Origin: Ruminococcus sp.
GTDB taxonomy: Bacteria; Bacillota; Clostridia; Oscillospirales; Ruminococcaceae
Reading direction: 5' to 3'
DNA length: 64,000 nt
Assembly (NCBI GenBank): GCA_021770655.1
Contig: JAETQO010000018.1
Location: 1,305 to 65,304 of the forward strand
Part shown: positions 17,759 to 58,606 of the stretch, one piece after another
How the letters are laid out: the number at the start of each line of letters is the position of its first letter
Numbering within the stretch: the stretch's first letter is position 1
The notes under the pieces: model-generated
Told to the model about the DNA's origin: nothing
What the model saw: the letters and a program-made list of their open reading frames with translations, nothing else
Databases searched by the model: none
Program-made: the position numbers and the translations under genes

Positions 17759-17776
17759 TAAAAGGAGAGAATTACT

Positions 17777-18136: not shown

Positions 18137-18151
18137 AGAGGAGGGTAAACA

Positions 18152-31954: not shown

Positions 31955-32004
31955 TATTGTAGATATTTTACTATTAAGATATTATTAACTGGAGGGGTTG
32001 TAAA

Positions 32005-32937: not shown

Positions 32938-32965
32938 TTCTTATTGAGTTAGGGGCTAATTTTTT

Positions 32966-33793: not shown

Positions 33794-33808
33794 CAGGAGT
33801 GTTTGTTG

Positions 33809-34639: not shown

Positions 34640-34704
34640 TTTGCAAATTTAATAAGTTATAAGCATTTTCTTTAGTCATATTTATTAGGAGTATTGTAAT
34701 TAAT

Positions 34705-35946: not shown

Positions 35947-37347
35947 ATGAACTTTATAAAAAAATTATTGATTTATTTTATAGGTAATGTATTTAATAAA
36001 CTGATTGTATTTTTTCTTTTACCTATTTATACATCAAATCTTTCTCCAAGTGCATATGGAGATGCTGATTTATCACTTACAACAGTTACCATGTTGGTTT
36101 CCCTTCTATTTATGGAGGTTTGGACACCGTTACTAAGATTTTCTTATGACAGCGAAAAAAGAAATGACAAAATAAAAGTATTTAACAATGTAATAATTGT
36201 TGTATGCATATGTATGCCAATTTATTTTGTTGGATGTTTGATAATTGGAAAATGGCAAAATCTCCCTCATTTGACGTGGATGATAGTATATGGATTATCC
36301 ATACTTATTTTGCACATATACCAGTTTGAAGTCAGAGCGGTTGGTAACAGCAAAGACTTTATGCTGTCTGGAATGATTTCTTCTATTGCACAGTTAGTTA
36401 TTAGCTTTATTGCTATTTATTTATTTAAAGCTAATTCTGAGGTAATACTTTTGGCCCCGGCAATCTCAAATATTATCGCTTCAATTTATCTTGAATTTAA
36501 GTATAAATTTATTTCACAGATAAAAAAATCATATTATTCGTTTGAAATGGTCAGCAGTATCATAAAATACGCTTTTCCATTGGCAATAAATGCAGTAGCG
36601 TTTTGGGCAATGACTAATATAAACAGATATTTTTCCAGAGCATATCTTGGATCTGCGGCAAATGGATATATTGCGGTTGCTACAAAATTTATAGCTCTTA
36701 TTAATACGATTGTTCAAATATATTCCTTGGCATGGCAGGAGAGTGCTTATGAACATTGCAATAGTCAGCAGCGATCAAATTATTATAGTAAAATGTTGAC
36801 AATTTATCTTGATGTTATGTCAGTGGGAACATGTATTGCTATAGTAGCAACTAATGTACTTTTCCCGTATATTATATCTGATGTGTCTTATGAAAAAACG
36901 CAATTAATCTTACCAATTTATTATATTTCTGCGTTTGCAAGTGCTATAAGTAATTTTTATGGACATATTTATAATGCATTAAAGAAAACCAATATTTTGC
37001 TTTTCTCGACTATTGGTGGTGCTGTGGTTAATATTGCTCTGCTGTATATCACTATAAATAAATTCGGAATATATTCAATTCCAATTTCGCTTATTGCGGG
37101 ATATAGTGTAAATGTCTTTATGCGTATTGTGAATATAAGTGAACATGTAAAAATCAAGTTAAACTATACGCATATTATTATTAATGCCTTGAGTATTGTA
37201 ATGCCATGTTTAATTGTTTATTTAAATTGTAATTATATTATCAAACTTATTGTTTTTATTCTTAGTTTAGGAAGTCTTATATACTGTTATAGAAAAGATT
37301 TAGGCACATTACTACATAAAATTAAAAAGGGAGTTGTCAGAAAATGA
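35947..37347 (+). CDS. Wzx-type flippase (MOP/PST family)
   Basis: 466 aa polytopic membrane protein. Position and size are typical of Wzx. Confidence 0.7.
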   Translation: MNFIKKLLIYFIGNVFNKLIVFFLLPIYTSNLSPSAYGDADLSLTTVTMLVSLLFMEVWTPLLRFSYDSEKRNDKIKVFNNVIIVVCICMPIYFVGCLIIGKWQNLPHLTWMIVYGLSILILHIYQFEVRAVGNSKDFMLSGMISSIAQLVISFIAIYLFKANSEVILLAPAISNIIASIYLEFKYKFISQIKKSYYSFEMVSSIIKYAFPLAINAVAFWAMTNINRYFSRAYLGSAANGYIAVATKFIALINTIVQIYSLAWQESAYEHCNSQQRSNYYSKMLTIYLDVMSVGTCIAIVATNVLFPYIISDVSYEKTQLILPIYYISAFASAISNFYGHIYNALKKTNILLFSTIGGAVVNIALLYITINKFGIYSIPISLIAGYSVNVFMRIVNISEHVKIKLNYTHIIINALSIVMPCLIVYLNCNYIIKLIVFILSLGSLIYCYRKDLGTLLHKIKKGVVRK

Positions 37348-38456
37348 ACGTAGATAAACTTATGTTGGGCGATTTTTATACCGGTGTTCCAGATTCACAA
37401 TTAAAACCATTATGTAATTGTCTTATGAATACTTATGGTATATCTGCAAAGCATATAATTGCTGCAAATGAGGGTAATTGTACAGCTATTGCTGCTGGTT
37501 ATTATCTGGCGACAGGAAAGGTTCCGGTCGTATATATGCAGAATAGTGGAATAGGAAATATTGTGAATCCGGTAGCATCACTTTTGAATGACAAGGTTTA
37601 TGGAATTCCATGTATTTTTATTGTAGGCTGGAGAGGTGAGCCTGGCGTACATGATGAACCGCAGCATATCTTTCAAGGTGAAATCACTATTAAATTGCTT
37701 GAGGATATTGGAATACATACGTTTATAATAGATAAAGATACCACCGAGGAGCAGATTCAAGAAGAAGTAAAAAGTAATGAGTCTATTTTGGCTAGCGGAA
37801 AAAGTGTAGCATTTGTTGTCAGAAAAGGTGCTATAAGCTATGATGAGAAAATTGAATATAAAAATGATAATACTATGTCTCGCGAAGATATTATCAAGCA
37901 CATAACATCAGTTACTAAAGATGATGTTATAGTTTCTACTACTGGTAAAGCGTCCAGGGAATTGTTTGAAATAAGGGAATCTCAAAATCAGACCCATCAG
38001 TATGATTTTCTCACAGTAGGTTCAATGGGGCATAGTTCATCGATTGCATTGGGTATTGCACTTCAAAAGCCTAATACAAAGGTTTGGTGTATTGACGGAG
38101 ATGGAGCTTTATTAATGCATATGGGAGCAATGGCGGTTATAGGTACTAACCGACCAGGAAATTTGATTCATATAGTTATTAATAACGGCGTTCATGAAAC
38201 TGTTGGAGGAATGCCAACTGTTGCTGGAGATATAGACATTGTAAAAATTGCAGAGGGTTGTGGATATCCTAACGCAGTATCAGTCGATAGTTTTGAAAAA
38301 CTTGATAAAGTATTAATTGAAGCAAAATCACAAAATGAACTTACATTAATCGAAGTAAAGTGTGCGATTGGTTCAAGAGATAATCTTGGCAGACCAACTA
38401 CAACGGCTCACGAAAATAAAGAAAACTTTATGAAGTATTTGGAGGTCCTTGAATAG
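37344..38456 (+). CDS. Phosphonopyruvate decarboxylase (ThDP-dependent; AepY/Fom2-like)
   Basis: DFYTGVPDSQLKPL...NEGNCTAIAAGYYLATGK...GSMGHSSSIALGIA...DGDGALLMHMG are ThDP-binding motifs. About 370 aa. Confidence 0.8.
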   Translation: MNVDKLMLGDFYTGVPDSQLKPLCNCLMNTYGISAKHIIAANEGNCTAIAAGYYLATGKVPVVYMQNSGIGNIVNPVASLLNDKVYGIPCIFIVGWRGEPGVHDEPQHIFQGEITIKLLEDIGIHTFIIDKDTTEEQIQEEVKSNESILASGKSVAFVVRKGAISYDEKIEYKNDNTMSREDIIKHITSVTKDDVIVSTTGKASRELFEIRESQNQTHQYDFLTVGSMGHSSSIALGIALQKPNTKVWCIDGDGALLMHMGAMAVIGTNRPGNLIHIVINNGVHETVGGMPTVAGDIDIVKIAEGCGYPNAVSVDSFEKLDKVLIEAKSQNELTLIEVKCAIGSRDNLGRPTTTAHENKENFMKYLEVLE

Positions 38457-39160
38457 TGAAGGCATTGATTTTAAATTCCGGTTTAGGAAGTCGTATGGGA
38501 GATATAACAAAGAGTGTTCCTAAATGTATGAGTATTGTTAAAGACAATGAGACTATTTTGTCAAATCAAATAAGACTTTTAAAGAAATCAGGAATAGATG
38601 ATATTGTAATTACAACTGGTTCACTTGAGAATGTTTTGAAAAATTATCTTAATGAGACTTTTCCTGGGGAAAGGTTTACGTATGTTTATAACGACAAGTA
38701 TATGGATACGAATTATATTTATTCTATATTTCTTGCAAAAGATATCGTTGACGATGACATTATATTTATGCATGGTGATTTATACTTTACTTCTGAAGTG
38801 TTTGACAAGTTAATTGAAGCTAAGAACAGTTGTGTAGTGATTGATAAGAATGCTGCTTTGCCTGAAAAAGATTTTAAGGCGGTTGTGGTTGACAATAAGG
38901 TGAAGAAAATTGGAATAGAATTTTTTGAAGATGCTTATACATGTCAGCCACTATATAAATTAAAACGAGATGATTGGCATATATGGTTGAATAAAATTTC
39001 CGAATTTTGTAAGAATGGAAAAACAAAAGTATATGCTGAAAATGCTTTAAACGAAATTACCGATAAAATAAATTTATATCCGTTAGATATTCAGTCTATG
39101 TTATGCAATGAAATTGATAATCTCGAGGATTTAAAGATAATAAGAGAAAAAATTAATTAA
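38456..39160 (+). CDS. LicC/MobA-type nucleotidyltransferase (possible phosphonate cytidylyltransferase)
   Basis: MKALILNSGLGSRMGDITKSVPKCM is the N-terminal NTP-binding loop. 234 aa. Confidence 0.65.
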   Translation: MKALILNSGLGSRMGDITKSVPKCMSIVKDNETILSNQIRLLKKSGIDDIVITTGSLENVLKNYLNETFPGERFTYVYNDKYMDTNYIYSIFLAKDIVDDDIIFMHGDLYFTSEVFDKLIEAKNSCVVIDKNAALPEKDFKAVVVDNKVKKIGIEFFEDAYTCQPLYKLKRDDWHIWLNKISEFCKNGKTKVYAENALNEITDKINLYPLDIQSMLCNEIDNLEDLKIIREKIN

Positions 39161-39248
39161 TGAGAATTTATGGAATAAGGTTTTGGATATGTCGGATTGT
39201 AATTTAAACCGATGTGTCAATTACACAAACCTTGAGGAAGGAATAATT

Positions 39249-40544
39249 ATGAAAAAAGTATATTTGTGTATGAGTACAGATGTTATACATGGCGGTCATA
39301 TTAAACTTATCAATAATGCAGCTAAACTTGGTGAAGTAACAGTTGGTGTTTTAACTGATACTGTTGTAGCTAGCTATAAGCGTTTTCCTATGCTTTCATA
39401 TGAGGAAAGAGCAAATATTATATCAAATATAAAGGGCGTTGCAAATGTTGTTCCGCAAACTGATTTGAGTTACAAAGAAAATTTACTTAAATACAAACCA
39501 GATTATCTTGTTCATGGTGATGATTGGATAAACGGATTACAAAAACCAATACGAGAGGAAGCTATTCAAGTATTATCTACATATGGTGGCGAATTGAAGG
39601 AATTTCCTTATTCAGGTGAAAAAGAATATGACATGTTTGAAGCAGGCGTAAGAAAGCAGTTATCTATTCCTGATCTTAGAAGAGGAAGATTGAAAAAGCT
39701 TTTAGGTATGAAGTCGACAGTTACTGCGATTGAGGCACATAATGGACTTACGGGCCTTATAGCAGAAAACACTCAGGTTGTTGAAAACGGTAAGGCATAT
39801 CAGTTTGATGCTATGTGGGTATCAAGTCTTTGTGATTCCACAGCGAAGGGCAAGCCTGATATTGAACTTGTTGATATGTCTAGCAGAATGCGTACGATTG
39901 ATGAGATAATGGAAGTGACAACAAAACCAATTATTTTTGATGGAGATACCGGCGGATTGATTGAGCATTTTGTATATAATATCAAGACATTTGAACGTAT
40001 GGGTATTTCTGCCATAATAATTGAAGATAAAGTTGGACTGAAAAAGAATTCACTGTTTGGTAATGAAGTTGTTCAGACTCAGGATACAATTGAACATTTT
40101 TGCGAAAAAATAAAGGCAGGGAAAAAAGCTTTAAAGACAAAAGATTTTATGCTTATAGCAAGGATTGAAAGTCTTATTTTAGAGCAAGGAATGGATGACG
40201 CTCTTAACAGAGCCTTCGCATATGTTGAAGCAGGTGCAGATGGTATAATGATTCATTCCAGAAAAAGTTCTCCTGATGAGATTTTTGAATTCTGTGATAA
40301 ATTCCGTGCTAAAGATAACATTACACCGCTTGTTGTTGTACCGACGTCGTTTAATACTGTTACGGAAGATGAGTTCGCAAGAAGAAATATTAATATTGTG
40401 ATTTATGCAAATCAACTTACGAGAAGTGCCTTTCCAGCTATGAAGGAAACGGCAGAAATTATACTAAAAAATCACAGAGCTAAAGAAGCTGATGATGTAT
40501 GTATGTCATTTAAAGATATAATTCGTTTAATTCCGGAGGAGTAA
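39249..40544 (+). CDS. Cytidylyltransferase-PEP mutase fusion (Fom1-like architecture)
   Basis: N-terminal HxGH module (YLCMSTDVIHGGHIKLINNA). The C-terminal ~290 aa is an ICL/PEP-mutase-type barrel (AHNGLTGLIAE...WVSSLCDS...IIEDKVGLKKNS...ARIESLI). The ATG at 39249 follows GAGGAAGG. Confidence 0.75.
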   Translation: MKKVYLCMSTDVIHGGHIKLINNAAKLGEVTVGVLTDTVVASYKRFPMLSYEERANIISNIKGVANVVPQTDLSYKENLLKYKPDYLVHGDDWINGLQKPIREEAIQVLSTYGGELKEFPYSGEKEYDMFEAGVRKQLSIPDLRRGRLKKLLGMKSTVTAIEAHNGLTGLIAENTQVVENGKAYQFDAMWVSSLCDSTAKGKPDIELVDMSSRMRTIDEIMEVTTKPIIFDGDTGGLIEHFVYNIKTFERMGISAIIIEDKVGLKKNSLFGNEVVQTQDTIEHFCEKIKAGKKALKTKDFMLIARIESLILEQGMDDALNRAFAYVEAGADGIMIHSRKSSPDEIFEFCDKFRAKDNITPLVVVPTSFNTVTEDEFARRNINIVIYANQLTRSAFPAMKETAEIILKNHRAKEADDVCMSFKDIIRLIPEE

Positions 40545-41660
40545 ATGAAAGAACCTAAAATATATGAAGATGGAAATTGTAGTGAAATACTTTCCGAAGT
40601 ATTAAATGAAGTATCCGCAAAAAATATTTTACTTGTTTGCAGCCACTCTTTTGATTCGTTAATTATAAAAAAAGATATTGAGCTTTTAGCTGGTAAGTAT
40701 AGCTTTTTTAGATTCGGAGATTTTGCCCCCAATCCTGTATATGAATCTGTCCAAAAAGGTGTAAAGTTTTTTAAAGAAAGTAATTGTGACACGGTTCTTG
40801 CCATTGGCGGGGGGAGCGCTATAGATGTTGCAAAATGTATAAAGCTATTTTCTCATATGGAAGATAACTCTAATTACCTTGAACATAATTTTAAGGATAA
40901 TGGAGTTCCTATTGTTTGTATACCTACTACGGCTGGCACTGGTAGTGAAGCTACAAGGTATGCTGTGATTTATTATAATGGTGAAAAGCAATCAATTACA
41001 CACGAAAGTATAATACCTGATTACGCTTTGTTGATTCCTGATTTACTGGACACACTTCCGCTATATCAAAAAAAGGCAACAATGCTTGACGCACTATGTC
41101 ATTCAATTGAGTCATTTTGGTCTGTTAATTCCACTGATGAAAGTAAAAAATACTCATCACAAGCAATAAGAATGATAATTGATAATAAGAATTCTTATTT
41201 ATCAAACAATATTGACGGAAATAAGAAAATGTTAATTGCCGCAAATTTGGCTGGAAAGGCAATAAATATAACACAAACCACGGCCGGACATGCAATGTGT
41301 TATAAAATTACATCATTGTATAACATTGCTCATGGTCATGCAGCCGGATGTTGCGTTCCCTATTTATGGGAATTTATGCTGGATAATATGGGTTTTGTTA
41401 CTGATTATCGTGGGAAAGAATATTTATTAAATGTTTTTTATGAAATATCGGAATGTCTAGGGTGTGATGGTCCAACGAATGCAGTTGCTTTTTTGAAAAA
41501 AATGCTTTTTGAATTATCACTTGAAATTCCAAAAATGAAAAATGATAAGGAACTTGAACTGCTTATAAAGTCAGTGAATCCTACAAGACTAAAAAATAAT
41601 CCCATTGCATTGAATAAGGAACAAATTAAGCAAATATATACCAATATATTTGGCTTGTAA
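40545..41660 (+). CDS. Group III iron-containing alcohol dehydrogenase (candidate phosphonoacetaldehyde reductase, FomC/PhpC-like)
   Basis: VLAIGGGSAIDVAKCIK...TTAGTGSEATRYAV...H..H metal motifs. Directly abuts the mutase gene. Confidence 0.7.
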   Translation: MKEPKIYEDGNCSEILSEVLNEVSAKNILLVCSHSFDSLIIKKDIELLAGKYSFFRFGDFAPNPVYESVQKGVKFFKESNCDTVLAIGGGSAIDVAKCIKLFSHMEDNSNYLEHNFKDNGVPIVCIPTTAGTGSEATRYAVIYYNGEKQSITHESIIPDYALLIPDLLDTLPLYQKKATMLDALCHSIESFWSVNSTDESKKYSSQAIRMIIDNKNSYLSNNIDGNKKMLIAANLAGKAINITQTTAGHAMCYKITSLYNIAHGHAAGCCVPYLWEFMLDNMGFVTDYRGKEYLLNVFYEISECLGCDGPTNAVAFLKKMLFELSLEIPKMKNDKELELLIKSVNPTRLKNNPIALNKEQIKQIYTNIFGL

Positions 41661-41672
41661 ATTGGAGGAATT

Positions 41673-42659
41673 ATGGACAAGTTTTTTGTTATCAGCCATA
41701 CAGAAGGCAAGAGTGCATATTTTCAATTTGTTTGGGGAAATATTGATAGCTACGGTGCATCATATATAAAAAATCAAGCTGAGATAAAAAATAAATTTTT
41801 AAAATTCCTTTTTAGAATTCACAACTCCAGAGATATTAATAGATATTTAAATTTGCCTTTTAAAAATATTTGGAAGAAATTCTATTCATTGAAACCGGAG
41901 ATGTTGTCTCCATCAGACAGAAATTTTCTTATATTTGACAATACAATTAAATATTCTCATTCTTATCTTAAATATTTGAAAGAGCATTATAATTGCGTTA
42001 TAGTTAATATTCTTCAGGATACTTTGAAAGTATATAAATGTGGTAGAAATAAGAAAGAACTTGATAGATATATTAATCAAGCCTGTGTGGATAAGTTTTT
42101 TTCTTTTGACTTTAAAGACTGCAAAGATTTTAATTTAGAATATTATATGCTGTATTCATATTTTCCTTCTAATTTGACAAAAGGAAAGGCCGGTAAGGTA
42201 TGTTATGTAGGAAGCAATAAAAGTAAAAATCGTTTAAACCTTTTTCATAGTGTATTTAAAAAGATTCATCAAGAAGTGGAAACAGATTTTAATATGGTCG
42301 GAGTATCAGAAAGTAATCAGATATTTCCACGTGAAATAACATACAATCATACTTTAAAATATAATGAGGTTATAGAAAAGATTCAAAAAAGTGATTGTTT
42401 ATTAGATATAGTTAATGATAATCAAACAGGTATAACGTTAAGATGCTGTGAAGCAATTTGTTATAATAAAAAGCTGCTAACGAATAATCCTTTTATAAAG
42501 GAATTGTCATTCTATAATCCAGAGTATATAAAGATTTTTAATAATGCTAATGATATTGATATAGAATGGCTTAAGTCGGACATTGATGTTGATTATCATT
42601 ATAATGGTGATTTTCATCCTACAAAGTTGTTTGAAATTCTTTCTCAAACGTTTAAATAA
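41673..42659 (+). CDS. Hypothetical protein, possible non-canonical glycosyl/phosphotransferase
   Basis: 328 aa with no family I can name. The C-terminal half (VCYVGSNKSKNR...GITLRCCEAICYNKKLLTNN) looks like a Rossmann-type half domain. Confidence 0.4.
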   Translation: MDKFFVISHTEGKSAYFQFVWGNIDSYGASYIKNQAEIKNKFLKFLFRIHNSRDINRYLNLPFKNIWKKFYSLKPEMLSPSDRNFLIFDNTIKYSHSYLKYLKEHYNCVIVNILQDTLKVYKCGRNKKELDRYINQACVDKFFSFDFKDCKDFNLEYYMLYSYFPSNLTKGKAGKVCYVGSNKSKNRLNLFHSVFKKIHQEVETDFNMVGVSESNQIFPREITYNHTLKYNEVIEKIQKSDCLLDIVNDNQTGITLRCCEAICYNKKLLTNNPFIKELSFYNPEYIKIFNNANDIDIEWLKSDIDVDYHYNGDFHPTKLFEILSQTFK

Positions 42660-42678
42660 TGTAAAGGTAGATGTTATT

Positions 42679-44013
42679 ATGAACATAGAGAATATACTGA
42701 AAAAAATTGACAGATTAAATAACTCAATAAAAGTAGGCATATCAAAGATACCATTTAATGAATGTAATTTATGGATGTATAATGAAGAACTCGGTGAGAT
42801 TTGTAATCAGACAAGAAGTTTTTTTCAAATTAAGGGTTTGATTAAGAATAACAAGAATGAGAATATTATAGAGCAACCCATTATCATTCAGAATGAAATT
42901 GGTTATCTCGGTATAATCCGTAAAAAGATCAATGGTGAATTTCATTATCTTATGCAGTACAAGATTGAACCGGGAAATATAAATAAAATTCAGATTTCCC
43001 CTACTATTCAAGCAACAAAGAGTAACTTCACGCAGAAACACGGTGGAAAGAGACCAGCATATTTGGACTATTTTGTCAATGCATATAAGTATAAAATAAT
43101 TGTAGATCAAATCCAGTCAGAACAGTCTTCGAGATTCTTGGGAAAGCGAAATAGAAACATAATTATTGAGCTTGATGAAAACGAATATGTTGAAGTGCTT
43201 CCTAGTCATGAATGGATGACATTAAATCAAATCAAGGCACTTATGACTTTTGACAATTTGGTTAATATGGATACACGTACAGTATTATCCTGTTTACCGT
43301 TATCGATAATAACTTATTCTAGCAGTAATCTTAATAATTTTGAGTCGCAATTCAATGATAAAGCATTGTTTAGATCTATTACAGCGGGATGTGGAAAAAA
43401 TCTCTTGCCCGATATTTATCAGTATATAAATAATTATAAAATGTTTGATGAAAGTGAAACAAAACTGATACCGTTATTTAATTTGACAAGTTGGCATATG
43501 CAAAACAACGAATTTGTATGTGATAATCCGTATAGTTTTAAAATTGTTTTTTGTAATATTGAAATTGAGGGAAGAGAGGTCAAACAATGGTGTCAGCCTT
43601 TGTTTGAGGCAACTGGAATTGCAACTTTTGGACTTTTTACTTGTATTGATAATGGTGTGAGAATGTTTTTGATAAGATGTTGTCCCGAAATTGGCTGTTT
43701 TGACAAAATTGAAATTGGTCCTAGTGTTCAGCGTGAATACACTTCATTGGAAGAAAAGAATTCAGTAGATTTGCTGTTTGATAAAAAGGTTAAAGAAAAG
43801 TCTGGAATTATGTTTGATACGCTTCTTTCTGAAGAGGGCGGACGCTTTTACCAGGAGCAGAATCGTAATGTAATTATTGAAATTGAAAAAAATGAAATTC
43901 AATTGCCAGACGGATATTTTTGGTGTGATTATAAAACGCTTAATATTCTTGTTCAAGTTAATAATACGCTTAATATTCAACTTAGAAATCTTTTATCAGT
44001 ATTGGAGTTTTAA
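42679..44013 (+). CDS. NDP-hexose 2,3-dehydratase
   Basis: QPIIIQNEIGYLGII...YKIEPGNINKIQISPTIQATKSNFTQKHGG...DQIQSEQSSRFLGKRNRNIII, duplicated in the second half (EEGGRFYQEQNRNVIIE). The ATG at 42679 follows the upstream stop at 42659. Confidence 0.85.
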   Translation: MNIENILKKIDRLNNSIKVGISKIPFNECNLWMYNEELGEICNQTRSFFQIKGLIKNNKNENIIEQPIIIQNEIGYLGIIRKKINGEFHYLMQYKIEPGNINKIQISPTIQATKSNFTQKHGGKRPAYLDYFVNAYKYKIIVDQIQSEQSSRFLGKRNRNIIIELDENEYVEVLPSHEWMTLNQIKALMTFDNLVNMDTRTVLSCLPLSIITYSSSNLNNFESQFNDKALFRSITAGCGKNLLPDIYQYINNYKMFDESETKLIPLFNLTSWHMQNNEFVCDNPYSFKIVFCNIEIEGREVKQWCQPLFEATGIATFGLFTCIDNGVRMFLIRCCPEIGCFDKIEIGPSVQREYTSLEEKNSVDLLFDKKVKEKSGIMFDTLLSEEGGRFYQEQNRNVIIEIEKNEIQLPDGYFWCDYKTLNILVQVNNTLNIQLRNLLSVLEF

Positions 44014-44016
44014 TAT

Positions 44017-45030
44017 ATGGATAAAATTAGGATAGGAATCATATGTCCCTCGGAGATTGCATTCAGACGTTTTATGCCAGCAATTACGAAATGCACGGAT
44101 TTTGATTATGTTGGAGTTGCTGTACCTCAAGCGGATGAATGGGGAGGTGCTTTTTCAAATGAAACAAGGGAAATCGAATTGTCAAAGGCTAAAGATTTTG
44201 TTGCAAGTTATGGTGGTAAGATCTTTGCAAGCTATAATGAGTTAATAGAAAGCAATGAAATTGATGCTGTTTATCTTCCGTTGCCACCTTCACTTCATTA
44301 TAAATGGGGTAGAAAAGTTCTTGAAAACGGGAAACATCTTTTTGTTGAAAAGCCATCAACAACTTGCTATAAAGATACAGAGGAACTTGTGAAATTTGCT
44401 TTGGGGAAAGGACTTGCATTGCACGAGAATTATATGTTCCGGTTCCATAGTCAGATTGAGTACATAAAGGATTTTATTGAGAGTGGAAAAATAGGAGATA
44501 TTAGGTTATACAAAATTGCATTTGGATTTCCTAAAAGAGCGTCCAATGATTTTAGATATAACAAAATGTTGGGCGGGGGAGCCTTGCTTGATGCTGGTGG
44601 TTATACTTTCAGATTGGCATCTATTCTTTTAGGTGATACAGTAAAAGTTGTAACATCAAAATTAAATTATACAGATGAGTTTGATGTAGATTTGTTTGGA
44701 AGTGCTACTCTTGAAAATGCAGAGGGTCTTATCGCTCAGGTTTCGTTTGGTATGGATAATGCTTACAAATGTGAACTTGAGGTGTGGGGCAGTAAAGGTA
44801 CATTATTTACAAACCGTATATTGACTGCACCGGTAGGATTTGAGCCTATAATTGAATATAAAGATGGTAATAATCCTATTGAAAAAATAAGGTTGTCTGA
44901 AGATGATACATTTATGAAATCTATTATGTATTTTGAAAAATGCATATATGATCAGAAAATAAGAAACAAAAGTTATAATTCCATTTTAAAGCAAGCTGAA
45001 CTTGTTGAAAAGGTGAAAGGATGCAATTAG
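44017..45030 (+). CDS. Gfo/Idh/MocA oxidoreductase (candidate NDP-hexose 3-ketoreductase)
   Basis: IRIGIICPSEIAFRRFMPAI is a Rossmann N-terminus, followed by LFVEKP. Context immediately after the 2,3-dehydratase. Confidence 0.7.
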   Translation: MDKIRIGIICPSEIAFRRFMPAITKCTDFDYVGVAVPQADEWGGAFSNETREIELSKAKDFVASYGGKIFASYNELIESNEIDAVYLPLPPSLHYKWGRKVLENGKHLFVEKPSTTCYKDTEELVKFALGKGLALHENYMFRFHSQIEYIKDFIESGKIGDIRLYKIAFGFPKRASNDFRYNKMLGGGALLDAGGYTFRLASILLGDTVKVVTSKLNYTDEFDVDLFGSATLENAEGLIAQVSFGMDNAYKCELEVWGSKGTLFTNRILTAPVGFEPIIEYKDGNNPIEKIRLSEDDTFMKSIMYFEKCIYDQKIRNKSYNSILKQAELVEKVKGCN

Positions 45031-45031
45031 C

Positions 45032-45580
45032 ATGAAAGTTACATCATTAGAAATTCCTGAAGTAAAAGTAATAGAGCCGGATGTGTTCTCAGATTATAGA
45101 GGTTATTATATGGAATCTTATTCTCAGAGATCCTTGGCGAAATTAGGAATCAATGACATATTTGTTCAAGATAATCATTTTTATTCAATAAAAAAAGGAA
45201 CTATTAGAGGAATTCATTTTCAAAATAATCCTTATGCACAGTCAAAACTTTTAAGATGTACAAGAGGTGTTATCCTTGATGTTGCAGTAGATCTTCGAAG
45301 GAATTCGCCTACCTATAAAAAATATGTAATGGTAGAACTTTCGGCTGAAAATAAAAAGCAGATTTACATTCCTAAGGGATTTGGACACTGCGCAATGTCA
45401 TTGACAGATGACGTAGAAGGTCAATATAAGGTTGATGAGTTTTACTACCCTAAATATGATCGTGCAATAGCTTTTAATGATCCTGAGATAGGAATTGACT
45501 GGGGTACTGATCAATTTATAGTATCTGAAAAGGATAAAAAAGCTCCGTTGTTGAAAGACAGTGATGTTAATTTTTTATGA
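45032..45580 (+). CDS. dTDP-4-keto-6-deoxyhexose 3,5-epimerase (RmlC family)
   Basis: 182 aa. FSDYRGYYMESY...IRGIHFQ...KLLRCTRGVILDVAVDLR...IPKGFGHC. Confidence 0.88.
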   Translation: MKVTSLEIPEVKVIEPDVFSDYRGYYMESYSQRSLAKLGINDIFVQDNHFYSIKKGTIRGIHFQNNPYAQSKLLRCTRGVILDVAVDLRRNSPTYKKYVMVELSAENKKQIYIPKGFGHCAMSLTDDVEGQYKVDEFYYPKYDRAIAFNDPEIGIDWGTDQFIVSEKDKKAPLLKDSDVNFL

Positions 45581-45589
45581 GGTGAGTGT

Positions 45590-46492
45590 ATGCAGGTAGC
45601 GGTTGTAACGGGCGCTGGCGGCTTTATCGGGGGCGCTTTGACTCAAAAGCTTTTGTCAGATGGAATGAAGGTTTATGGTGTGGATATAAGTGCAGATTCT
45701 CTATTGCGTTTTAATTCGTATGATAATTTTGTTCCCGTGTGTATTAATCTTGAAAAAGAGAGCATATCAAGTTATTTAGATGAAAAATGTGATGTATTTT
45801 ATTATCTTGCTTGGGGTGGACAACTTGGAGGAAAGGATTTATCTGATGAAAATTTACAGGTAAAAAATATAATGACTGCTGTGAGAACTTGCCGTAGTAT
45901 GGTAAATTCATGTAACAAGTATATCTTTTGCAGTTCAAGTTATGAGTATATGAGAAGCTGTGAAAATGATGAGATTTATGTAAATATATATGGTATTGCC
46001 AAACGTTCAGCTGCTGAGATGTGTGCAGCTATCGCATTGCAGAATGGAATGAACTTTAATAAAGCTATTTTGACCAATACCTATGGTGTAGGAGATCGAT
46101 CTAAAAAAGCTGTTAATACAATAATTAATGCTATGAATAATAATATTTCGCTTACTTTGGTTGAGGGAAATAATAAAAATGATTGGGCTTATATTGATGA
46201 TACAGTTGATGGTTTGATCAATATTTTTAAAAAAGGTAAAAATCACAAAACTTATTATATAGGACATAGGGAGATATCTACCTTTAAAGAGAAAATATTG
46301 GCAATGCGTAGTTTACTGTGTCCGGAGAGAGAATTGATATTTGGAGGATATGTAGAAAATACATATGTCGATTATTCCTGTATTGATTTGGACGCGTTAT
46401 ATGATGATACGGGATTTGAATGTAAAACGGAATTTAATGAAAGTATAATAAAAACGTCTGAATGGTTAAAAAATAAAAAAGATAAGGTGTAA
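45590..46492 (+). CDS. NAD(P)-dependent SDR epimerase/reductase (candidate 4-ketoreductase)
   Basis: VAVVTGAGGFIGGAL glycine motif and YGIAK catalytic YxxxK. Confidence 0.7.
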   Translation: MQVAVVTGAGGFIGGALTQKLLSDGMKVYGVDISADSLLRFNSYDNFVPVCINLEKESISSYLDEKCDVFYYLAWGGQLGGKDLSDENLQVKNIMTAVRTCRSMVNSCNKYIFCSSSYEYMRSCENDEIYVNIYGIAKRSAAEMCAAIALQNGMNFNKAILTNTYGVGDRSKKAVNTIINAMNNNISLTLVEGNNKNDWAYIDDTVDGLINIFKKGKNHKTYYIGHREISTFKEKILAMRSLLCPERELIFGGYVENTYVDYSCIDLDALYDDTGFECKTEFNESIIKTSEWLKNKKDKV

Positions 46493-46493
46493 A

Positions 46494-47666
46494 ATGGATA
46501 AGATAATAATTGTTGGTTCTGGTTTTTCTGGAAGTATATTGGCAAGAAAGATTGCAGAAGAATTGAACAGAAAAGTTTTAATAGTAGAAAGAAGAAATCA
46601 TATTGCAGGTAATATGTTTGATGAATATGATGAAAATGGAATATTAATACAAAGATATGGCCCACATTTTATTAATACAAATAATTATGCTGTAATCAGA
46701 TTTTTGCTGAAATATTCAAAATTATTTAGGCATGATACGAAACTCCTTAGTTTTATTGATGGAAACTATGTTAGACTTCCATTTAATTTTAGAACAATGC
46801 AACAACTGGTGGGCGATGAAAAGTCAGAATATCTTTTGAAAAAAATGAGATCTGAGTATGTTGGGCGTGATAGGGTTCCGATATTCGAATTGTTGAATAA
46901 TGAAGATGAGTCAATAAGAGAATATGGTAAATTGTTGTTTGAAAAAGCATATAAGACATATACAGCAAAACAATGGGGGCTTCAACCAGAGGAAATTGAT
47001 AAAAGCGTTTTAGAACGAGTGCCAATGGCAATGAATTTCGATGAAAGATACCTCAATAAGGATTTTCAATATCTCCCTGAAAATGGTTATACTGAATTGT
47101 TTAAAAATTTATTAGAACATCCTAATATTGAAGTAAGACTTAATACAGATGCATTGCCCCACATTGAATTTGATGAAGATAACCATACTATTAAATATGA
47201 TGGGGAAAATGTTGAGCTGCTTGTTTTTACTGGTGCAATTGATGAACTTTTCAATTTAAAATATGGAAGACTTCCATATCGGTCTTTGGATATAAAGTAT
47301 GATTATTTTAATGAAGAAAAGATACTTCCCAGTGAAATAATATCATATCCTCAGGCAATTGGTTATACAAGAAAGACAGAATACAAGCAGATCACTCAAA
47401 ATGTTCCTAAGATTAATAAGACGGTTGTTGCAACTGAGTATCCGATTGAATACGATCCAGATAAAAATGTAGGGAATATACCATATTATCCTGTTTTAAC
47501 AGAGAATAGCAAAGTGGCTTATGAAAAATATTTTGCGGAATCGAAAAAATATGGTAATATTTTCCTATGCGGAAGATTAGCTGAGTTTAAATATTATAAT
47601 ATGGATATTTGTATCGAGCATGCATTAGATAAATTTGAAAAAATAAAACAAATACTGGAGGTTTAA
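46494..47666 (+). CDS. glf: UDP-galactopyranose mutase
   Basis: [17 protein letters not shown]...[29 protein letters not shown]...YTAKQWG. Confidence 0.9.
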
Positions 47667-47667
47667 T

Positions 47668-48540
47668 ATGAAAGGTATTATACTTGCTGGAGGAAAAGGT
47701 ACAAGACTTTATCCAAATACCATAGTGGTTAGCAAACAACTTTTGCCAATTTATGATAAGCCACTTATCTATTATCCATTATCTGTATTGCTCCTTGCTA
47801 ATATAAGAGATATTCTTATTATTTCTACACCGGAGGATACTCCTAATTATCAAAGACTTTTGGGAGATGGTTCAAGAATAGGAATACATATTGAGTATGC
47901 AATTCAAGATTGTCCCAAAGGTTTAGCTGATGCTTTTATTATTGGAGCAAATTTTATAGGTAATGACAGCGTATGTCTCGTTCTTGGAGATAATGTGTTT
48001 TATGGACAGCATTTTTCAGGAATATTACAGCAAGCCAGAAAACAGGCAGAAATAGGTGGAGCATCAATATTTGGTTATCCAGTAAAAAATCCAAGGGAAT
48101 TTGGTGTAGTTGAATTTGATAGCAATAATAAAGTTCTTTCTATAGAAGAAAAACCTGAAAATCCGAAATCTAATTATGCTGTTCCCGGACTTTATTTTTA
48201 TGATAACGATGTTGTGGAGATAGCAAAAAATGTTAAGCCTTCGGCTAGAGGAGAAATTGAAATTACATCAGTTAATAATGTATATCTCAAAAATAGTAAA
48301 TTAGACGTAGTACTAATGGGCAGGGGGATGGCATGGCTTGATACCGGATCTCCTAAGGGAATGCATAAAGCCGGATCTTTTGTAAAAACCGTTCAGGAAA
48401 TGCAGGGATTCTATATTTCATGTATTGAAGAAATTGCATGGAGAAGAGGCTTTATTTCAACAGAACAACTTCATGAAATTGGAGAAAATCTTAAAATGAC
48501 TGACTACGGAAAGTATATTTTATCTCTTAGGGAGGAATAA
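47668..48540 (+). CDS. rfbA: Glucose-1-phosphate thymidylyltransferase
   Basis: [16 protein letters not shown]...[20 protein letters not shown]. Confidence 0.93.
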
Positions 48541-48544
48541 TAAA

Positions 48545-49564
48545 ATGACAATCATAGTAACAGGTGGAGCAGGGTTTATTGGAAGTAATTTCATCTTCCA
48601 TATGCTTGAAAAATATCAAGACTATCGTATTATATGTCTTGATAAATTGACGTATGCTGGTAATCTTTCAACACTTAAAAATATAATGAACAATCGAAAT
48701 TTTCGATTTGTAAAGGCGGATATTTGCGACAGGGAGGCTGTTTACAAACTTTTTGAGGAAGAACATCCTGATGTTGTGGTGAATTTTGCCGCAGAGAGTC
48801 ATGTTGACCGTTCTATCGAAAATCCAGAGGTATTTCTTAAGACTAATATTTTGGGAACACAAACACTTATGGATGCATGTAGAAAATATGGGGTAGTTCG
48901 TTATCATCAGGTTTCAACAGATGAAGTGTATGGCGATTTACCACTTGATAGACCTGATCTTTTTTTTACAGAAACGACACCAATTCATACAAGTAGTCCA
49001 TATTCTGCCAGCAAAGCGTCTGCAGATCTTCTTGTTTTAGCTTATTATAGAACCTATGGTTTGCCAATAACGATTTCACGTTGTTCCAATAACTATGGTC
49101 CATATCATTTTCCCGAAAAACTTATTCCACTTATGATTGCAAATGCATTAAACGATAAACCGTTGCCTGTCTATGGTACCGGTGAAAATATTAGGGATTG
49201 GTTGTATGTAGAGGATCATTGTAAAGCTATTGATCTTATCATTCATAAGGGAACTGTGGGAGAAGTTTACAATATAGGTGGGCATAATGAAATGTCAAAC
49301 ATTGATATTGTAAAGCTTATTTGCAAGGAACTTGGTAAACCTGAAAGTCTAATAACTTATGTTACTGATAGAAAAGGTCATGATATGCGCTATGCGATTG
49401 ATCCTACGAAAATTCACAATGAACTTGGTTGGTTGCCTGAAACAAAATTTTCTGAAGGAATAAAGAAGACGATTCAGTGGTATTTAGAAAATACAGAGTG
49501 GTGGGAAACAATCATCAGTGGTGAGTATAAGAATTATTATGATAAGATGTATCATAATAGATAA
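48545..49564 (+). CDS. rfbB: dTDP-glucose 4,6-dehydratase
   Basis: IIVTGGAGFIGSNF...FAAESHVDRSI...YSASKASADLLV. Confidence 0.93.
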   Translation: MTIIVTGGAGFIGSNFIFHMLEKYQDYRIICLDKLTYAGNLSTLKNIMNNRNFRFVKADICDREAVYKLFEEEHPDVVVNFAAESHVDRSIENPEVFLKTNILGTQTLMDACRKYGVVRYHQVSTDEVYGDLPLDRPDLFFTETTPIHTSSPYSASKASADLLVLAYYRTYGLPITISRCSNNYGPYHFPEKLIPLMIANALNDKPLPVYGTGENIRDWLYVEDHCKAIDLIIHKGTVGEVYNIGGHNEMSNIDIVKLICKELGKPESLITYVTDRKGHDMRYAIDPTKIHNELGWLPETKFSEGIKKTIQWYLENTEWWETIISGEYKNYYDKMYHNR

Positions 49565-49743
49565 AAAGTATAAATATAAAGCATCGTGCGGTTTTGAATG
49601 AATTATTGAAGCGTCGTACAACATTGATAAAAAGTTTTCTTCCCCTGGAATCAAGTGAACAATTTTAGAAGCTAACAGAATTATTTCGATTTGATCTACT
49701 TTTTCACTATCAAATAAGATTCGAATTTATTGACAACAAAAAC

Positions 49744-49778
49744 CTCCGCAGTTTTTACTACGGAGATTTTTGTTTTTA
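49744..49778. terminator. Hairpin with flanking A/T runs between the convergent rfbB and 49828 ORF
   Basis: CTCCGCAG/CTACGGAG stem followed by TTTTTGTTTTT and preceded by ACAAAAA. Confidence 0.6.
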
Positions 49779-49827
49779 TTTGATTATTTTACTTTTTCGT
49801 TGTCACACTCTTAACAGCAGACCATTC

Positions 49828-50268
49828 TTACTTGCCCTCCACAATTTCTGGTTCACACATTATTTTAACGTTAACAGACCTTACTTCTTCCTTCTCACAC
49901 CAACCTAAATCAATAGAAAAAGCTTCGTTTATCATTTTTAATATTTCAGTTTGTTTTTCCCACAATTCATTTGGAATTGGAAGTGTCATTATATTCCAAG
50001 TGATATTAATCCCATCATCATAATTTCCAGTACTAGTTCTTACAACTTCTATACGTATCGTATAGCCATCCCACCAAAAATCGTGAAAATTCGGCATATC
50101 ATTAAATCCACCACCTATCCTAACTAAATATGCATTTCTATCCCTATCTGCACACCACTTTGTATCCTTTGACAAACTCAAAGAACCATTTCCCCAACAA
50201 TTTTTCAATCCCATAGATTTAAAAAACTCATAATCCTTTTCAGGAACTTTCTCAAAAACAAAAGCCAT
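49828..50268 (-). CDS. Hypothetical protein (146 aa), AT-rich, at the island edge
   Basis: The ATG at 50268 (MAFVFEK) lies 7 nt after GGAGG. No recognisable motifs. W-rich (WGNG, WWDGY, WNIM). Confidence 0.5.
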   Translation of the reverse strand: MAFVFEKVPEKDYEFFKSMGLKNCWGNGSLSLSKDTKWCADRDRNAYLVRIGGGFNDMPNFHDFWWDGYTIRIEVVRTSTGNYDDGINITWNIMTLPIPNELWEKQTEILKMINEAFSIDLGWCEKEEVRSVNVKIMCEPEIVEGK

Positions 50269-50491
50269 AATAAAAACCTCCAAATATAATTATTGATATT
50301 TTAAGTATGCCGTAAAAGAGTTTGCAAGTCAAGCATTTTTATATAATTTTGACTGCAAAACATAAATCAAGAACACTCAGACAGTGCAGATAAGCAATAA
50401 ATTATTACTGTTAAAATGTACAAATAAACAAGTGTGAAATTATGCGATCATACAAAAGTGATTGATGTTAAATGTTTTTGAATGAAAGCTC

Positions 50492-55893: not shown

Positions 55894-56045
55894 ATTTCTC
55901 ACCTCCAATCTGCACTTGCTGATGGAGCTGTTTTTGAAAAAACTTATTTTATAACCATAAGGATATGACTATACTTATAGTTAATTTTCTTTTCCTCAAA
56001 AAAGGTTTATAATGAATATACAATCCGATTTACGAGGTGAGATTT

Positions 56046-57917
56046 ATGCTTGAAAGCGAAGCGAATATTTCAAACAAAGAACTGCGACGCGCAAAAATCA
56101 GAGAACGATATAAAGGGTCAAACACAGAATTACTTGAAGTAATCCCCGGGAAGAAAGCTGCTGATTTTTACGATGATATTGCTCGACGTGTTGCGGTATA
56201 TGTAAGAGTTTCAACCGATAATTTACAACAAACCAGTTCTTATGAGCTTCAGAAAAACTATTATGAAGAAAAAGTAAGCAGAAATCCCAACTGGGCTTTA
56301 GTTGATATATACGCTGATGAAGGAATATCGGGTACTTCTTTGCAGCATCGTGATGCTTTTAATAGAATGATTGAGGACTGCAAAGCAGGAAAAATAGACA
56401 TGATAATAACCAAAAGCGTATCACGTTTTGCGAGAAATATTGTTGACTGTATAAGTATTGTTCGTCAGCTTTCCGCACTTAAAAATCCTGTCGGAGTAAG
56501 ATTTGAAACCGAGGGTATTTTCACATTGAATGACAATACAGAAATGAATCTCAGTTTTACGGCGACTATGGCACAAGAGGAGTCCCATATTAAAAGTTCA
56601 ATTATGAACGCTTCTATTGAAATGCGTTTTGGACGAGGAATTGTTTTGACACCGGTTCTTCTCGGCTATGACCACGATGAAGATGGAAAACTTACAATCA
56701 ACGAAAAAGAAGCTAAGACAGTTCGGCTCATATTCTTTATGTACCTGTACGGTTATTCCTGTAAGGAAATAGCAGACTTGTTGACTAAACTTGGCAGACA
56801 GACCAAGAAGGGGAATACAAAATGGAGTTCGGGAAGCGTTTTGGAGATACTCAGAAACGAGCGACATTGCGGAGAAATTCTTACCCGAAAAACATATACA
56901 CCAAGCTATTTAGACCATAAATCAAGAAAAAATCGTGGTGAGCGTTCACAGCACCGCTGGAAAGGTGAACATGAAGCCATAATTTCCAAAGACGATTTTA
57001 TTGCTGTACAGCACCTTATAAATAACGCAAAATACGGAAACAAAGGTATTCTGCCGGAACTGAAAATTATTCCCGAAGGCGCATTGAAAGGCTTTATATC
57101 CATAAATACGAGATGGGCTGGCTTTAAGGCTGATGATTATATCTACATTGCCAAGACTGTTTGTGATGGAGAGGATGCGGAAAACGACATTATAAAGATA
57201 GAAGTGCAGAGTGGAGATTTTGATTACAGAGGTTTTGAGATAGCAAGAGAGCAGTTTTTTAATAATTCCGATAGGCTGTCAATTACTTTTTCGCTGAAAT
57301 CAATGAAGTTCAGTTACAACTGCATCAAAAAGCTTTCGGATACTCAGTACATAGAATTACTTATTCACCCATTGAAAAAACTGTTGATAGTTAGAACTGC
57401 CGACAGCAAAAACAAGAACGCTATAAAATGGCTGTCATTGACCGCATATGGAGGATATATTTCACGTTCCGTATGTGGTACTGCATATCTCAAAACAATA
57501 TATGCGTTACTTGGTTGGGACGAAAATTGTAAATATCGAGTCCGAGGTATCCGAAAGCAAAATGATGATGAAAGTCTACTTATTTTCAGCCTTGAAGAAA
57601 CTGAGCTTTATTTATCAAAGGACAGAAAAGGAATTGCCGATGAGGGTGAAGCAGAAATAACATCTCTTGCCAAAACAGGGAAGTCCGTTATTGCATATCC
57701 TTCTGCTTGGGCAGATAATTTTGGCAGTAACTTTTACCATCACTCTCAGGCTGCGGAATTACAACGTATGAAAAAAGCAGCAGATTGGAGTTTAAGGCAA
57801 GAAGTAACCAGTTATCCAGATTATCTTGAACTTAACATTACCAGCCGTGATGAGGCAGCAAACAACATACGAACAATAATCAACGATATGAAAATGGAGG
57901 AAAATAATGATGGATAA
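56046..57917 (+). CDS. Large serine recombinase with a non-canonical C-terminal region (no zinc-ribbon Cys pairs)
   Basis: Resolvase catalytic domain VAVYVRVSTDNLQQTSSYELQ...ITKSVSRFARN. Recombinase domain (GYDHDEDGKLTINEKEAKTVRLIF...WSSGSVLEILRNERHCGE). An alternative GTG start lies at 56037. Confidence 0.85.
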   Translation: MLESEANISNKELRRAKIRERYKGSNTELLEVIPGKKAADFYDDIARRVAVYVRVSTDNLQQTSSYELQKNYYEEKVSRNPNWALVDIYADEGISGTSLQHRDAFNRMIEDCKAGKIDMIITKSVSRFARNIVDCISIVRQLSALKNPVGVRFETEGIFTLNDNTEMNLSFTATMAQEESHIKSSIMNASIEMRFGRGIVLTPVLLGYDHDEDGKLTINEKEAKTVRLIFFMYLYGYSCKEIADLLTKLGRQTKKGNTKWSSGSVLEILRNERHCGEILTRKTYTPSYLDHKSRKNRGERSQHRWKGEHEAIISKDDFIAVQHLINNAKYGNKGILPELKIIPEGALKGFISINTRWAGFKADDYIYIAKTVCDGEDAENDIIKIEVQSGDFDYRGFEIAREQFFNNSDRLSITFSLKSMKFSYNCIKKLSDTQYIELLIHPLKKLLIVRTADSKNKNAIKWLSLTAYGGYISRSVCGTAYLKTIYALLGWDENCKYRVRGIRKQNDDESLLIFSLEETELYLSKDRKGIADEGEAEITSLAKTGKSVIAYPSAWADNFGSNFYHHSQAAELQRMKKAADWSLRQEVTSYPDYLELNITSRDEAANNIRTIINDMKMEENNDG

Positions 57918-58605: not shown

Positions 58606-58606
58606 T

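Follow-up and report, generated by a model that had tools for sequence, protein, structure and literature searches.

Among the closest described systems, the TDP-L-digitoxose route of Actinomadura kijaniata employs six enzymes (KijD5, KijD4, KijB1, KijD10, KijD11 and KijC2; PMC11167396). The L-olivose/L-oleandrose route of Streptomyces antibioticus (OleS, OleE, OleV, OleW, OleL and OleU) includes, by the roles described for it, a 2,3-dehydratase, a 3-ketoreductase, a full 3,5-epimerase and a 4-ketoreductase (PMC11167396). Digitoxose is also known in the S-layer O-glycan of Tannerella forsythia (PMC5378307, PMC6120980), some glycoforms of which have a deoxyhexose where digitoxose would stand (PMC5378307).

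We analyzed a 64-kb stretch of DNA (the window) from a Ruminococcus sp. that is contained in rat and mouse gut metagenomes. Seven uninterrupted open reading frames, all on the + strand and with 1–9 bases between neighbors, occupy positions 42679–49564 at the 3' end of an 18-gene cluster (31193–49564) in which each gene is a glycan-assembly or precursor gene. The seven contiguous genes listed in a preliminary description of the sequence are present and intact, and its gene-by-gene assignment and proposed route were upheld by HMM, PDB-sequence and catalytic-residue checks. We consider it probable that the block combines Glf with the six enzymes of a dTDP-2,6-dideoxy-L-hexose pathway and forms the 3' end of an operon, expressed in a rodent-gut Ruminococcus, for a Wzx/Wzy-type surface glycan. 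The six roles correspond one-to-one, in the same chemical order, to those of the A. kijaniata route. That route belongs to a polyketide cluster; the present genes lie in a Firmicute, within a Wzx/Wzy glycan operon. The likeness to T. forsythia concerns the glycan: there, too, a host-associated bacterium outside the actinomycetes has a 2,6-dideoxyhexose in a glycoconjugate of its cell surface, although that organism belongs to the Bacteroidota and its glycan is a protein O-glycan rather than a Wzy polymer. The locus places a full "antibiotic-type" 2,6-dideoxy sugar enzyme set inside a surface-glycan cluster; each enzyme belongs to a known kind, and other gut Clostridia have the module as well.

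The first gene (42679–44013) encodes an NDP-hexose 2,3-dehydratase of the EvaA/KijB1/OleV type (444 aa) with two Nudix-like domains. PF03559 (Hexose_dehydrat) matched it in two stretches (E = 4e-115), and among PDB sequences EvaA matched at E = 4e-68 (4j7g). The duplicated motif blocks reported earlier were found in the translation, one per domain (QSEQSSRFLGKRNRN, N-terminal; LSEEGGRFYQEQNRN, C-terminal). Both catalytic residues are kept: E97 and E148, invariant across 15 homologues, align with E139 and E190, which are indispensable in EvaA (PMC8987622). The mechanical reading frame begins upstream, at TTG 42583, but the likely start is ATG 42679, since 444 aa matches the homologue lengths (437–449 aa). 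The adjacent gene (44017–45030, 337 aa) was matched by both the N- and C-terminal Gfo/Idh/MocA domains and is of the KijD10 type, an NDP-3,4-diketo-2,6-dideoxyhexose C-3 ketoreductase. Among PDB sequences, KijD10 was its best match and closest solved relative (3rbv, E = 4e-56; next unrelated family member, 7e-21), with the key residues kept (K112 and Y196, aligned to KijD10 K102 and Y186). This gene adjoins the dehydratase gene in 66/80 metagenome loci.

An RmlC-type dTDP-4-keto-sugar 3,5-epimerase (PF00908, TIGR01221) of 182 aa is encoded at 45032–45580. It scored 209 bits against the TIGR01221 rmlC cutoff of 155.75 and retains residues H63, K73, Y133 and D170 of Salmonella enterica RmlC. Among PDB sequences, RmlC structures matched at E = 1e-46 to 1e-48 and the mono-epimerases EvaD, NovW and ChmJ at 1e-22 to 1e-24; the enzyme is therefore nearer housekeeping RmlC than the solved antibiotic-pathway epimerases EvaD and NovW.

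The 300-aa extended SDR that follows (45590–46492, PF01370) carries GAGGFIGG, SSS and YGIAK, the last being the YxxxK motif noted previously. Its PDB matches were weak (best 5e-13), with generic source names. The earlier statement that an RmlD-type gene is absent agrees with the lack of a match between the SDR and PF04321 or TIGR01214, the RmlD profiles, and with a tblastn search of the 64-kb window with three RmlD-like proteins of related loci, in which only a weak match inside rfbB was obtained. SDR orthologues (31–53% identity) come after the dehydratase–ketoreductase pair in related loci whether RmlC is present or absent; the family accompanies the pair in L008, L009, L010, L013, L014 and 16 metagenome loci, with RmlC missing in L009 and 4 of the metagenome loci. 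On this conserved neighborhood, rather than on homology to a characterized enzyme, we propose that the SDR is the dTDP-4-keto-2,6-dideoxy-L-hexose 4-ketoreductase. The last three genes encode UDP-galactopyranose mutase Glf (46494–47666; TIGR00031, 350 bits vs cutoff 303.75), a separate UDP-Galf branch, glucose-1-phosphate thymidylyltransferase RmlA (47668–48540; TIGR01207, 455 vs 360.65) and dTDP-glucose 4,6-dehydratase RmlB (48545–49564; TIGR01181, 506 vs 365.1).

In the proposed route, for which family assignments and conserved catalytic residues back steps 1–5, RmlA would supply dTDP-glucose and RmlB would convert it to dTDP-4-keto-6-deoxyglucose. The EvaA-like dehydratase would then remove the 2-OH to give dTDP-3,4-diketo-2,6-dideoxyglucose, the KijD10-like enzyme would reduce C-3, and the RmlC-type epimerase would invert C-5 and probably also C-3. 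Reduction of C-4 by the SDR, as conserved gene order suggests, would complete the sugar. KijD10-type reduction yields a gluco-configured 3-OH. Since a canonical 3,5-epimerase acting on this configuration would most likely lead to L-olivose or L-oliose, we infer that the product is likelier to be 2-deoxy-L-rhamnose (L-olivose) or 2-deoxy-L-fucose (L-oliose) than L-digitoxose; capture of the C-5 epimer alone would instead give L-digitoxose or L-boivinose. If RmlC carries out both epimerizations, the Ole route would be the best functional analogy, although its product goes onto a macrolide aglycone via a GT1 enzyme and the cluster here lacks an O-methyltransferase. RmlA, RmlB and RmlC score above equivalog cutoffs, a likeness to the RmlABCD L-rhamnose route, from which the locus differs in the absence of RmlD and in a dehydratase and 3-ketoreductase that would take off the 2-OH ahead of epimerization and reduction.

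An alternative reading is that RmlC and the SDR also, or mainly, make a 6-deoxy-L-hexose (L-rhamnose or 6-deoxy-L-talose) from dTDP-4-keto-6-deoxyglucose, leaving the 2-deoxy form partial. Because RmlC is no closer to other enzymes than to housekeeping RmlC, it and the SDR could take the 2-hydroxy intermediate too; its above-cutoff score and complete set of catalytic residues fit such a dual output, as do the mixed T. forsythia glycoforms (PMC5378307) and the occurrence of the orphan GT-B family (see below) in dehydratase-less, rhamnose-type loci. We nevertheless judge it unlikely, as the dehydratase, 3-ketoreductase, RmlC and SDR genes lie side by side and are conserved together as one cassette, the SDR family follows the pair even where RmlC is missing, and the SDR is not RmlD-like.

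Upstream genes, all on the + strand, provide a predicted assembly pathway for the glycan. By Pfam they comprise a WbaP-type phosphoglycosyl transferase (31193–31954), similar to TIGR03022 and TIGR03025 but below both cutoffs because the catalytic domain alone is present, a GT2 (32005–32937), two LicD copies (32966–33793 and 33803–34639), a 413-aa Wzy_C protein (34705–35946, PF04932) and a Wzx flippase (35947–37347). The phosphonate branch (37344–41660) consists of phosphonopyruvate decarboxylase, a nucleotidyltransferase, a cytidylyltransferase–PEP mutase fusion and an Fe-alcohol dehydrogenase; profile scores were 476 bits vs 312.5 (TIGR03297) and 407 vs 319.55 (TIGR02320), the dehydrogenase being below every cutoff. 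With Glf, PEP mutase and phosphonopyruvate decarboxylase above NCBIfam cutoffs, the predicted co-occurrence of galactofuranose and a phosphonate is borne out at the gene level. The 328-aa protein of 41673–42659 matched nothing in Pfam at E≤5; its predicted structure (AlphaFold pLDDT 92.8) has a GT-B fold, with Foldseek matches to SenB, BshA, GtfC and WbnH (probability 1.0). Relatives occur in polysaccharide loci with rmlA/rmlC, and the protein is a candidate for transfer of the dTDP-L-sugar or Galf. The WbaP-type enzyme would start a lipid-linked unit, to which the GT2 and the orphan GT-B would add the dideoxy sugar and Glf-derived UDP-Galf and the LicD enzymes the phosphonate; Wzx would flip the unit and Wzy polymerize it.

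PF04932 members include ligases and O-oligosaccharyltransferases besides polymerases, and the same sugar pathway might serve a protein-linked O-glycan of an S-layer or other surface protein, with Wzy_C as the oligosaccharyltransferase or ligase. The only documented non-actinomycete surface 2,6-dideoxyhexose glycan that we found is a protein O-glycan, and no chain-length regulator (Wzz/CpsCD) or LCP ligase gene lies within the cluster. However, 413 aa is the size of a Wzy polymerase and below that of the larger Gram-positive S-layer oligosaccharyltransferases, and Wzx with a WbaP-type initiator and LicD is typical of capsule or wall-polysaccharide loci; protein O-glycosylation is distinctly unlikely. 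Decoration of a small-molecule natural product in actinomycete fashion is extremely improbable: the biochemically characterized 2,3-dehydratase/3-ketoreductase pairs are all from antibiotic clusters (PMC8987622, PMC11167396), but a scan of the cluster genes and of large flanking ORFs revealed no PKS, NRPS or aglycone gene, and the related loci are polysaccharide loci too. The co-clustering of phosphoglycosyl transferase, GT2, GT-B, Wzy_C and Wzx agrees with the original proposal that the pathway feeds a Wzx/Wzy unit rather than a secondary metabolite.

The cluster is a low-GC island (~30% vs 45–48%), which indicates foreign origin and raises the question of a decaying, non-functional remnant within a horizontally acquired island. 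We consider this very unlikely. The reading frames are intact, the catalytic residues are conserved, and the protein sequence is identical across 18 independent contigs from different samples. Another Clostridia MAG shows synteny over the entire cluster at 41–83% amino-acid identity, which argues for purifying selection. Contigs of four metatranscriptomes cover 31061–49940 at even depth (~5–28×), which suggests that the cluster is expressed, although such contigs may include DNA and their depth poorly reflects expression. RNA contigs of three metatranscriptomes (X6, X13 and X15) have their 5' end at 31061 and those of X10 at 31073; together with a promoter-like site from a consensus scan (TTGTCT-17-TAAAAT, 31027–31061, +), the shared end is no more than suggestive of a promoter there. 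At the other end of the array, ~180 nt 3' of rfbB, lies a terminator-like hairpin with a U-rich tract after it (49736–49790, +; –14.9 kcal/mol, z = –6.0, 0/200 shuffles equally stable), and RNA contig depth drops past ~49.9 kb.

The combination had been called unusual. This holds for chemically characterized gut-commensal glycans, a 2025 review of whose sugars does not list a 2,6-dideoxyhexose, but not for genomes, as this cassette and variants of it are found again in many metagenome loci, from the gut and elsewhere, and digitoxose is known in a non-actinomycete surface glycan. Among 47 informative metagenome loci, 11 have the dehydratase–ketoreductase–RmlC–SDR cassette, and an aminotransferase variant is commoner (30/47). 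L006-type gut Clostridia cassettes share rmlA/rmlB and the polysaccharide context and have orthologous dehydratase (65%) and 3-ketoreductase (60%), but carry a DegT aminotransferase (plus GNAT) in place of RmlC and SDR, which predicts an N-acylated amino-trideoxyhexose there; no aminotransferase, methyltransferase or RmlD gene was found inside 31193–49564. Glf comes after the RmlC–SDR cassette in 6 of the 11 loci, and also in L013 and L014.

The seven genes that the preliminary description had read as a complete dTDP-2,6-dideoxy-L-hexose branch were recovered as described, as unbroken ORFs on the + strand separated by gaps of 1–9 bases. They encode, in order, an NDP-hexose 2,3-dehydratase (42679–44013; PF03559 twice, E = 4e-115), a Gfo/Idh/MocA oxidoreductase (KR3, 44017–45030; PF01408 and PF22725), an RmlC epimerase (45032–45580; TIGR01221, 209.4 bits against a cutoff of 155.75), an extended SDR (45590–46492; PF01370, 94 bits), Glf (46494–47666; TIGR00031), RmlA (47668–48540; TIGR01207) and RmlB (48545–49564; TIGR01181), the last three each above cutoff. 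The duplicated SEQ/SEEGG...RF...NRN blocks of the dehydratase and the YxxxK motif of the SDR (YGIAK), both noticed earlier, were seen in the translations. The reported lack of an RmlD-type gene also held: the SDR matches neither PF04321 nor TIGR01214, and when RmlD-like proteins of related loci were used as queries against the 64-kb window, the only match was a weak one inside rfbB.

The first three enzymes of the block have informative structural relatives. The dehydratase carries two tandem Hexose_dehydrat (Nudix-like) domains (PF03559 in two stretches, 383 bits). Its comparison with EvaA-type dehydratases, proposed in the preliminary description, gave EvaA (4j7g), the sole solved relative, at E = 4e-68, with both halves aligned and the catalytic glutamates kept. 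E139 and E190 of EvaA pocket A correspond to E97 and E148 of the dehydratase, which are invariant in 15 homologues; in EvaA, these two residues of the active pocket A are essential (PMC8987622). Judged by sequence, the putative dehydratase would convert dTDP-4-keto-6-deoxyglucose to the 3,4-diketo-2,6-dideoxy sugar. The parallel comparison of KR3 with known 3-ketoreductases placed KijD10 closest (E = 4e-56 over residues 4–334, the whole length), with the next family member 35 orders of magnitude worse (7e-21). Y196 of KR3 aligns with Tyr186 of KijD10, to which the KijD10 structure paper reportedly assigns an active-site role. Likewise, K112 aligns with KijD10 Lys102, whose active-site role is stated in PMC11167396. 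H62, K72, Y132 and D168 of the epimerase correspond to His63, Lys73, Tyr133 and Asp170 of Salmonella RmlC (1dzr), and it matched true RmlC structures at 1e-46 to 1e-48, versus 1e-22 to 1e-24 for the mono-epimerases EvaD, NovW and ChmJ. From this closer relation to RmlC and from its position in the cassette, we infer that the epimerase accepts a 2-deoxy substrate and inverts C-3 as well as C-5.

The SDR has an intact Rossmann motif (GAGGFIGG) and catalytic Ser/Tyr/Lys residues (SSS...YGIAK). Its best PDB match was weak (an uncharacterised SDR, 5e-13) and its database names are generic, reading only 'NAD(P)-dependent oxidoreductase'. Since the SDR has no informative relative, its proposed role as 4-ketoreductase rests on context. 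SDR orthologues (31–53% identity) directly follow dehydratase-KR3(-RmlC) in five related loci (L008, L009, L010, L013 and L014) and in 16 metagenome loci. The order dehydratase-KR3-RmlC-SDR-RmlA-RmlB is found in L008 and L010, and L009 has the same order minus RmlC. The absence of RmlC in L009 predicts a D-sugar there, and it places the SDR in the deoxy pathway. In L014, two tandem SDR paralogues (17328–18245), 37% and 40% identical to the window SDR, follow RmlC; the pair could make two dideoxy sugars that differ in configuration at C-4.

The gene set of the window maps one-to-one on the six enzymes of the TDP-L-digitoxose route, KijD5/D4/B1/D10/D11/C2 (PMC11167396). With aminotransferase, methyltransferase and RmlD all missing from it, the product would most simply be a dTDP-2,6-dideoxy-L-hexose that carries no further modification. 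The stereochemical steps are drawn from established pathway chemistry. KijD10-type reduction would leave a gluco-type 3-OH, after which a full 3,5-epimerase would direct the route to L-olivose (L-arabino) or L-oliose (L-lyxo). Were the 5-epimer alone captured, the product would instead be L-digitoxose or L-boivinose. In engineered pathways such as pLNBIV, it is the 4-ketoreductase that decides the product (PMC11167396). We infer the role of the SDR, the stereochemistry, the transferase that uses the sugar, and a polymer as opposed to a protein glycan as its destination.

The seven-gene block closes a tightly packed cluster of 18 same-strand genes (31193–49564). The glycan cluster (about 31000–50000) is a low-GC island of 26–34%, flanked by DNA of 45–48% GC upstream and ~40% downstream. 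Upstream of the seven genes, all on the + strand, are a WbaP-type phosphoglycosyl transferase (PF02397), a GT2 glycosyltransferase (PF00535), two LicD proteins (32966–34639), a Wzy_C protein (PF04932, 44.7 bits versus 31.7) and a Wzx flippase (PF01943). That one array holds an initiating phosphoglycosyl transferase, Wzx, glycosyltransferases and a Wzy-like polymerase supports the Wzx/Wzy-type destination proposed earlier. No Wzz/CpsCD chain-length regulator or LCP ligase domain was detected in the 18 cluster genes; such functions may be encoded elsewhere in the genome. Wzz, CpsD and CpsB are present in one relative, L011. The three donors (the initiating sugar, UDP-Galf and the dTDP-dideoxyhexose) would be matched by one phosphoglycosyl transferase and two glycosyltransferases (GT2 and a GT-B protein). 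The same array includes a complete early phosphonate branch (37344–41660, +) that lacks an aminotransferase. In it, phosphonopyruvate decarboxylase (Ppd) scores 476 bits with TIGR03297, and a fusion of cytidylyltransferase and PEP mutase scores 407 bits with TIGR02320; the other two members are a second nucleotidyltransferase and an Fe-alcohol dehydrogenase. PntC-Ppm fusions have been described (PMC6697681). From these genes and the two LicD proteins, a phosphonate substituent is predicted. Given the Fe-ADH and the missing aminotransferase, it would more likely be hydroxyethylphosphonate than the usual 2-aminoethylphosphonate.

The GT-B protein (328 aa, 41673–42659, +) lies directly before the dehydratase and matches no Pfam or NCBIfam family. 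Its AlphaFold model (pLDDT 92.8) has a GT-B glycosyltransferase fold, and Foldseek returned SenB, BshA, GtfC and WbnH at probability 1.0. A profile built from 47 relatives found 6,314 representative clusters at E ≤ 1e-3 (1,689 at E ≤ 1e-30), so that this orphan GT-B represents a large unmodelled glycosyltransferase family. All five contexts seen for the family were polysaccharide loci with rmlA/rmlC. A role for the protein as a dedicated dideoxyhexosyl transferase found little support, relatives being present also in dehydratase-free rhamnose loci. No orphan GT-B relative was found within 8 kb of the dehydratase in the 80 metagenome loci collected around close dehydratase relatives.

Within polysaccharide loci, the neighbourhoods of the dehydratase genes are modular. 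At E ≤ 1e-10, the dehydratase has over 7,700 relatives in the database; the best 120 of these are all at least 62% identical, the few named ones coming from Clostridia MAGs. The identical protein is encoded by 18 contigs of differing sample origin, and the sequence is present in rat and mouse gut metagenomes. A genome contig search with the single dehydratase protein returned one locus, L001, from a Longicatena MAG. KR3 adjoins the dehydratase in 66 of the 80 metagenome loci (L015–L094). Among the 47 of these 80 with enough flank to be classified, a DegT-type aminotransferase was the commonest partner (30 loci), RmlC plus SDR occurred in 11, six of which continue with Glf as in the window, and SDR alone occurred in four. 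The related locus L006 likewise has the order dehydratase-KR3-aminotransferase. With an aminotransferase as the commonest partner, amino-trideoxyhexoses may outnumber 2,6-dideoxyhexoses in these glycan loci. The full cluster, from phosphoglycosyl transferase to glf/rmlA, recurs in the same order at 41–83% protein identity in L013, a 'Clostridia bacterium' MAG (GCA_017469465.1, JAFUGH010000061.1), which looks like a conserved glycan type common to divergent genomes. Identities are mosaic: relative to L006 and L009, RmlB is 88–89% identical but the dehydratase 65–72%. The low-GC island and these mosaic identities point to horizontal exchange of sugar modules.

The combination of sugars had been called unusual. 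This stands for chemically known gut-commensal glycans, as none of the 24 monosaccharides listed in a 2025 review of surface polysaccharides of gut commensals is a 2,6-dideoxyhexose, but not for genomes, where the cassette and its variants are common. The pathway is of a known type, well supported, and lies in an under-described setting; it is not a singular case. Characterised 2,3-dehydratase pathways are all from antibiotic clusters (PMC8987622), and the S-layer O-glycan of Tannerella forsythia contains digitoxose (PMC5378307, PMC6120980). CC-licensed PMC and bioRxiv texts yielded nothing direct on a 2,3-dehydratase or 2,6-dideoxy sugar in Firmicute polysaccharides, an absence that is weak evidence. 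The 'dideoxyhexose' of Clostridium flagellin glycosylation was discarded as a precedent, since those are 3,6-dideoxy sugars. A broader reading, held tentatively and in our judgement not quite an even prospect, is that gut and rumen Clostridia widely put 'antibiotic-type' 2-deoxy sugars (2,6-dideoxy-L- and -D-hexoses and N-acyl amino-2,x,6-trideoxyhexoses) in their surface polysaccharides; that these would be commensal antigens missed by standard sugar analysis because 2-deoxy glycosides are acid-labile; that some of the transferases would come from the orphan GT-B family (~6,300 representative clusters); and that galactofuranose would be joined in the repeat unit here by a 2,6-dideoxy-L-hexose and a substituent of the hydroxyethylphosphonate type. 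In gut commensals, surface glycans affect immune recognition and phage susceptibility, and few have been solved chemically. The window locus and its many relatives predict 2,6-dideoxyhexoses in the Clostridia glycan repertoire, and a concrete set of six soluble proteins makes the prediction testable. For glycodiversification, the same six enzymes could provide dTDP-2,6-dideoxy sugars from outside the actinomycetes. As the enzymology is of the textbook kind, what is gained concerns distribution and context and not mechanism.

In four metatranscriptomic run assemblies, 31061–49940 was covered nearly gap-free at even depth, with lower depth outside. Contigs end at 31061 in three runs, six bases past a -10-like TAAAAT. 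Direct folding identified a stable hairpin followed by a U tract after rfbB (49736–49790; -14.9 kcal/mol, z = -6), which a simple terminator scan had missed because of a bulge. The even coverage, the contig end and the hairpin fit one long operon, with the reservation that the contigs may include DNA carry-over. At 31061 and 49940, the metatranscriptome contigs are interrupted and carry short extensions that do not match, and in two runs 187 bases (49940 to 50128) are skipped inside a minus-strand ORF (49828–50283) with no Pfam match; these breaks and the skip may reflect strain variation at the island borders. The flanks encode ribosomal proteins and RpoA, glycoside hydrolases and pfkB, and no PKS/NRPS was found among the large flanking ORFs scanned. 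By its RpoA, the organism belongs to Ruminococcus sp. Farther out, downstream of the glycan locus, is a serine-recombinase element (56037–60815, +) of lower GC (36–39%), in which Pfam-negative ORFs accompany a DUF6551 protein and a large serine recombinase with Resolvase and Recombinase domains; it is probably a prophage remnant or an integrated mobile element.
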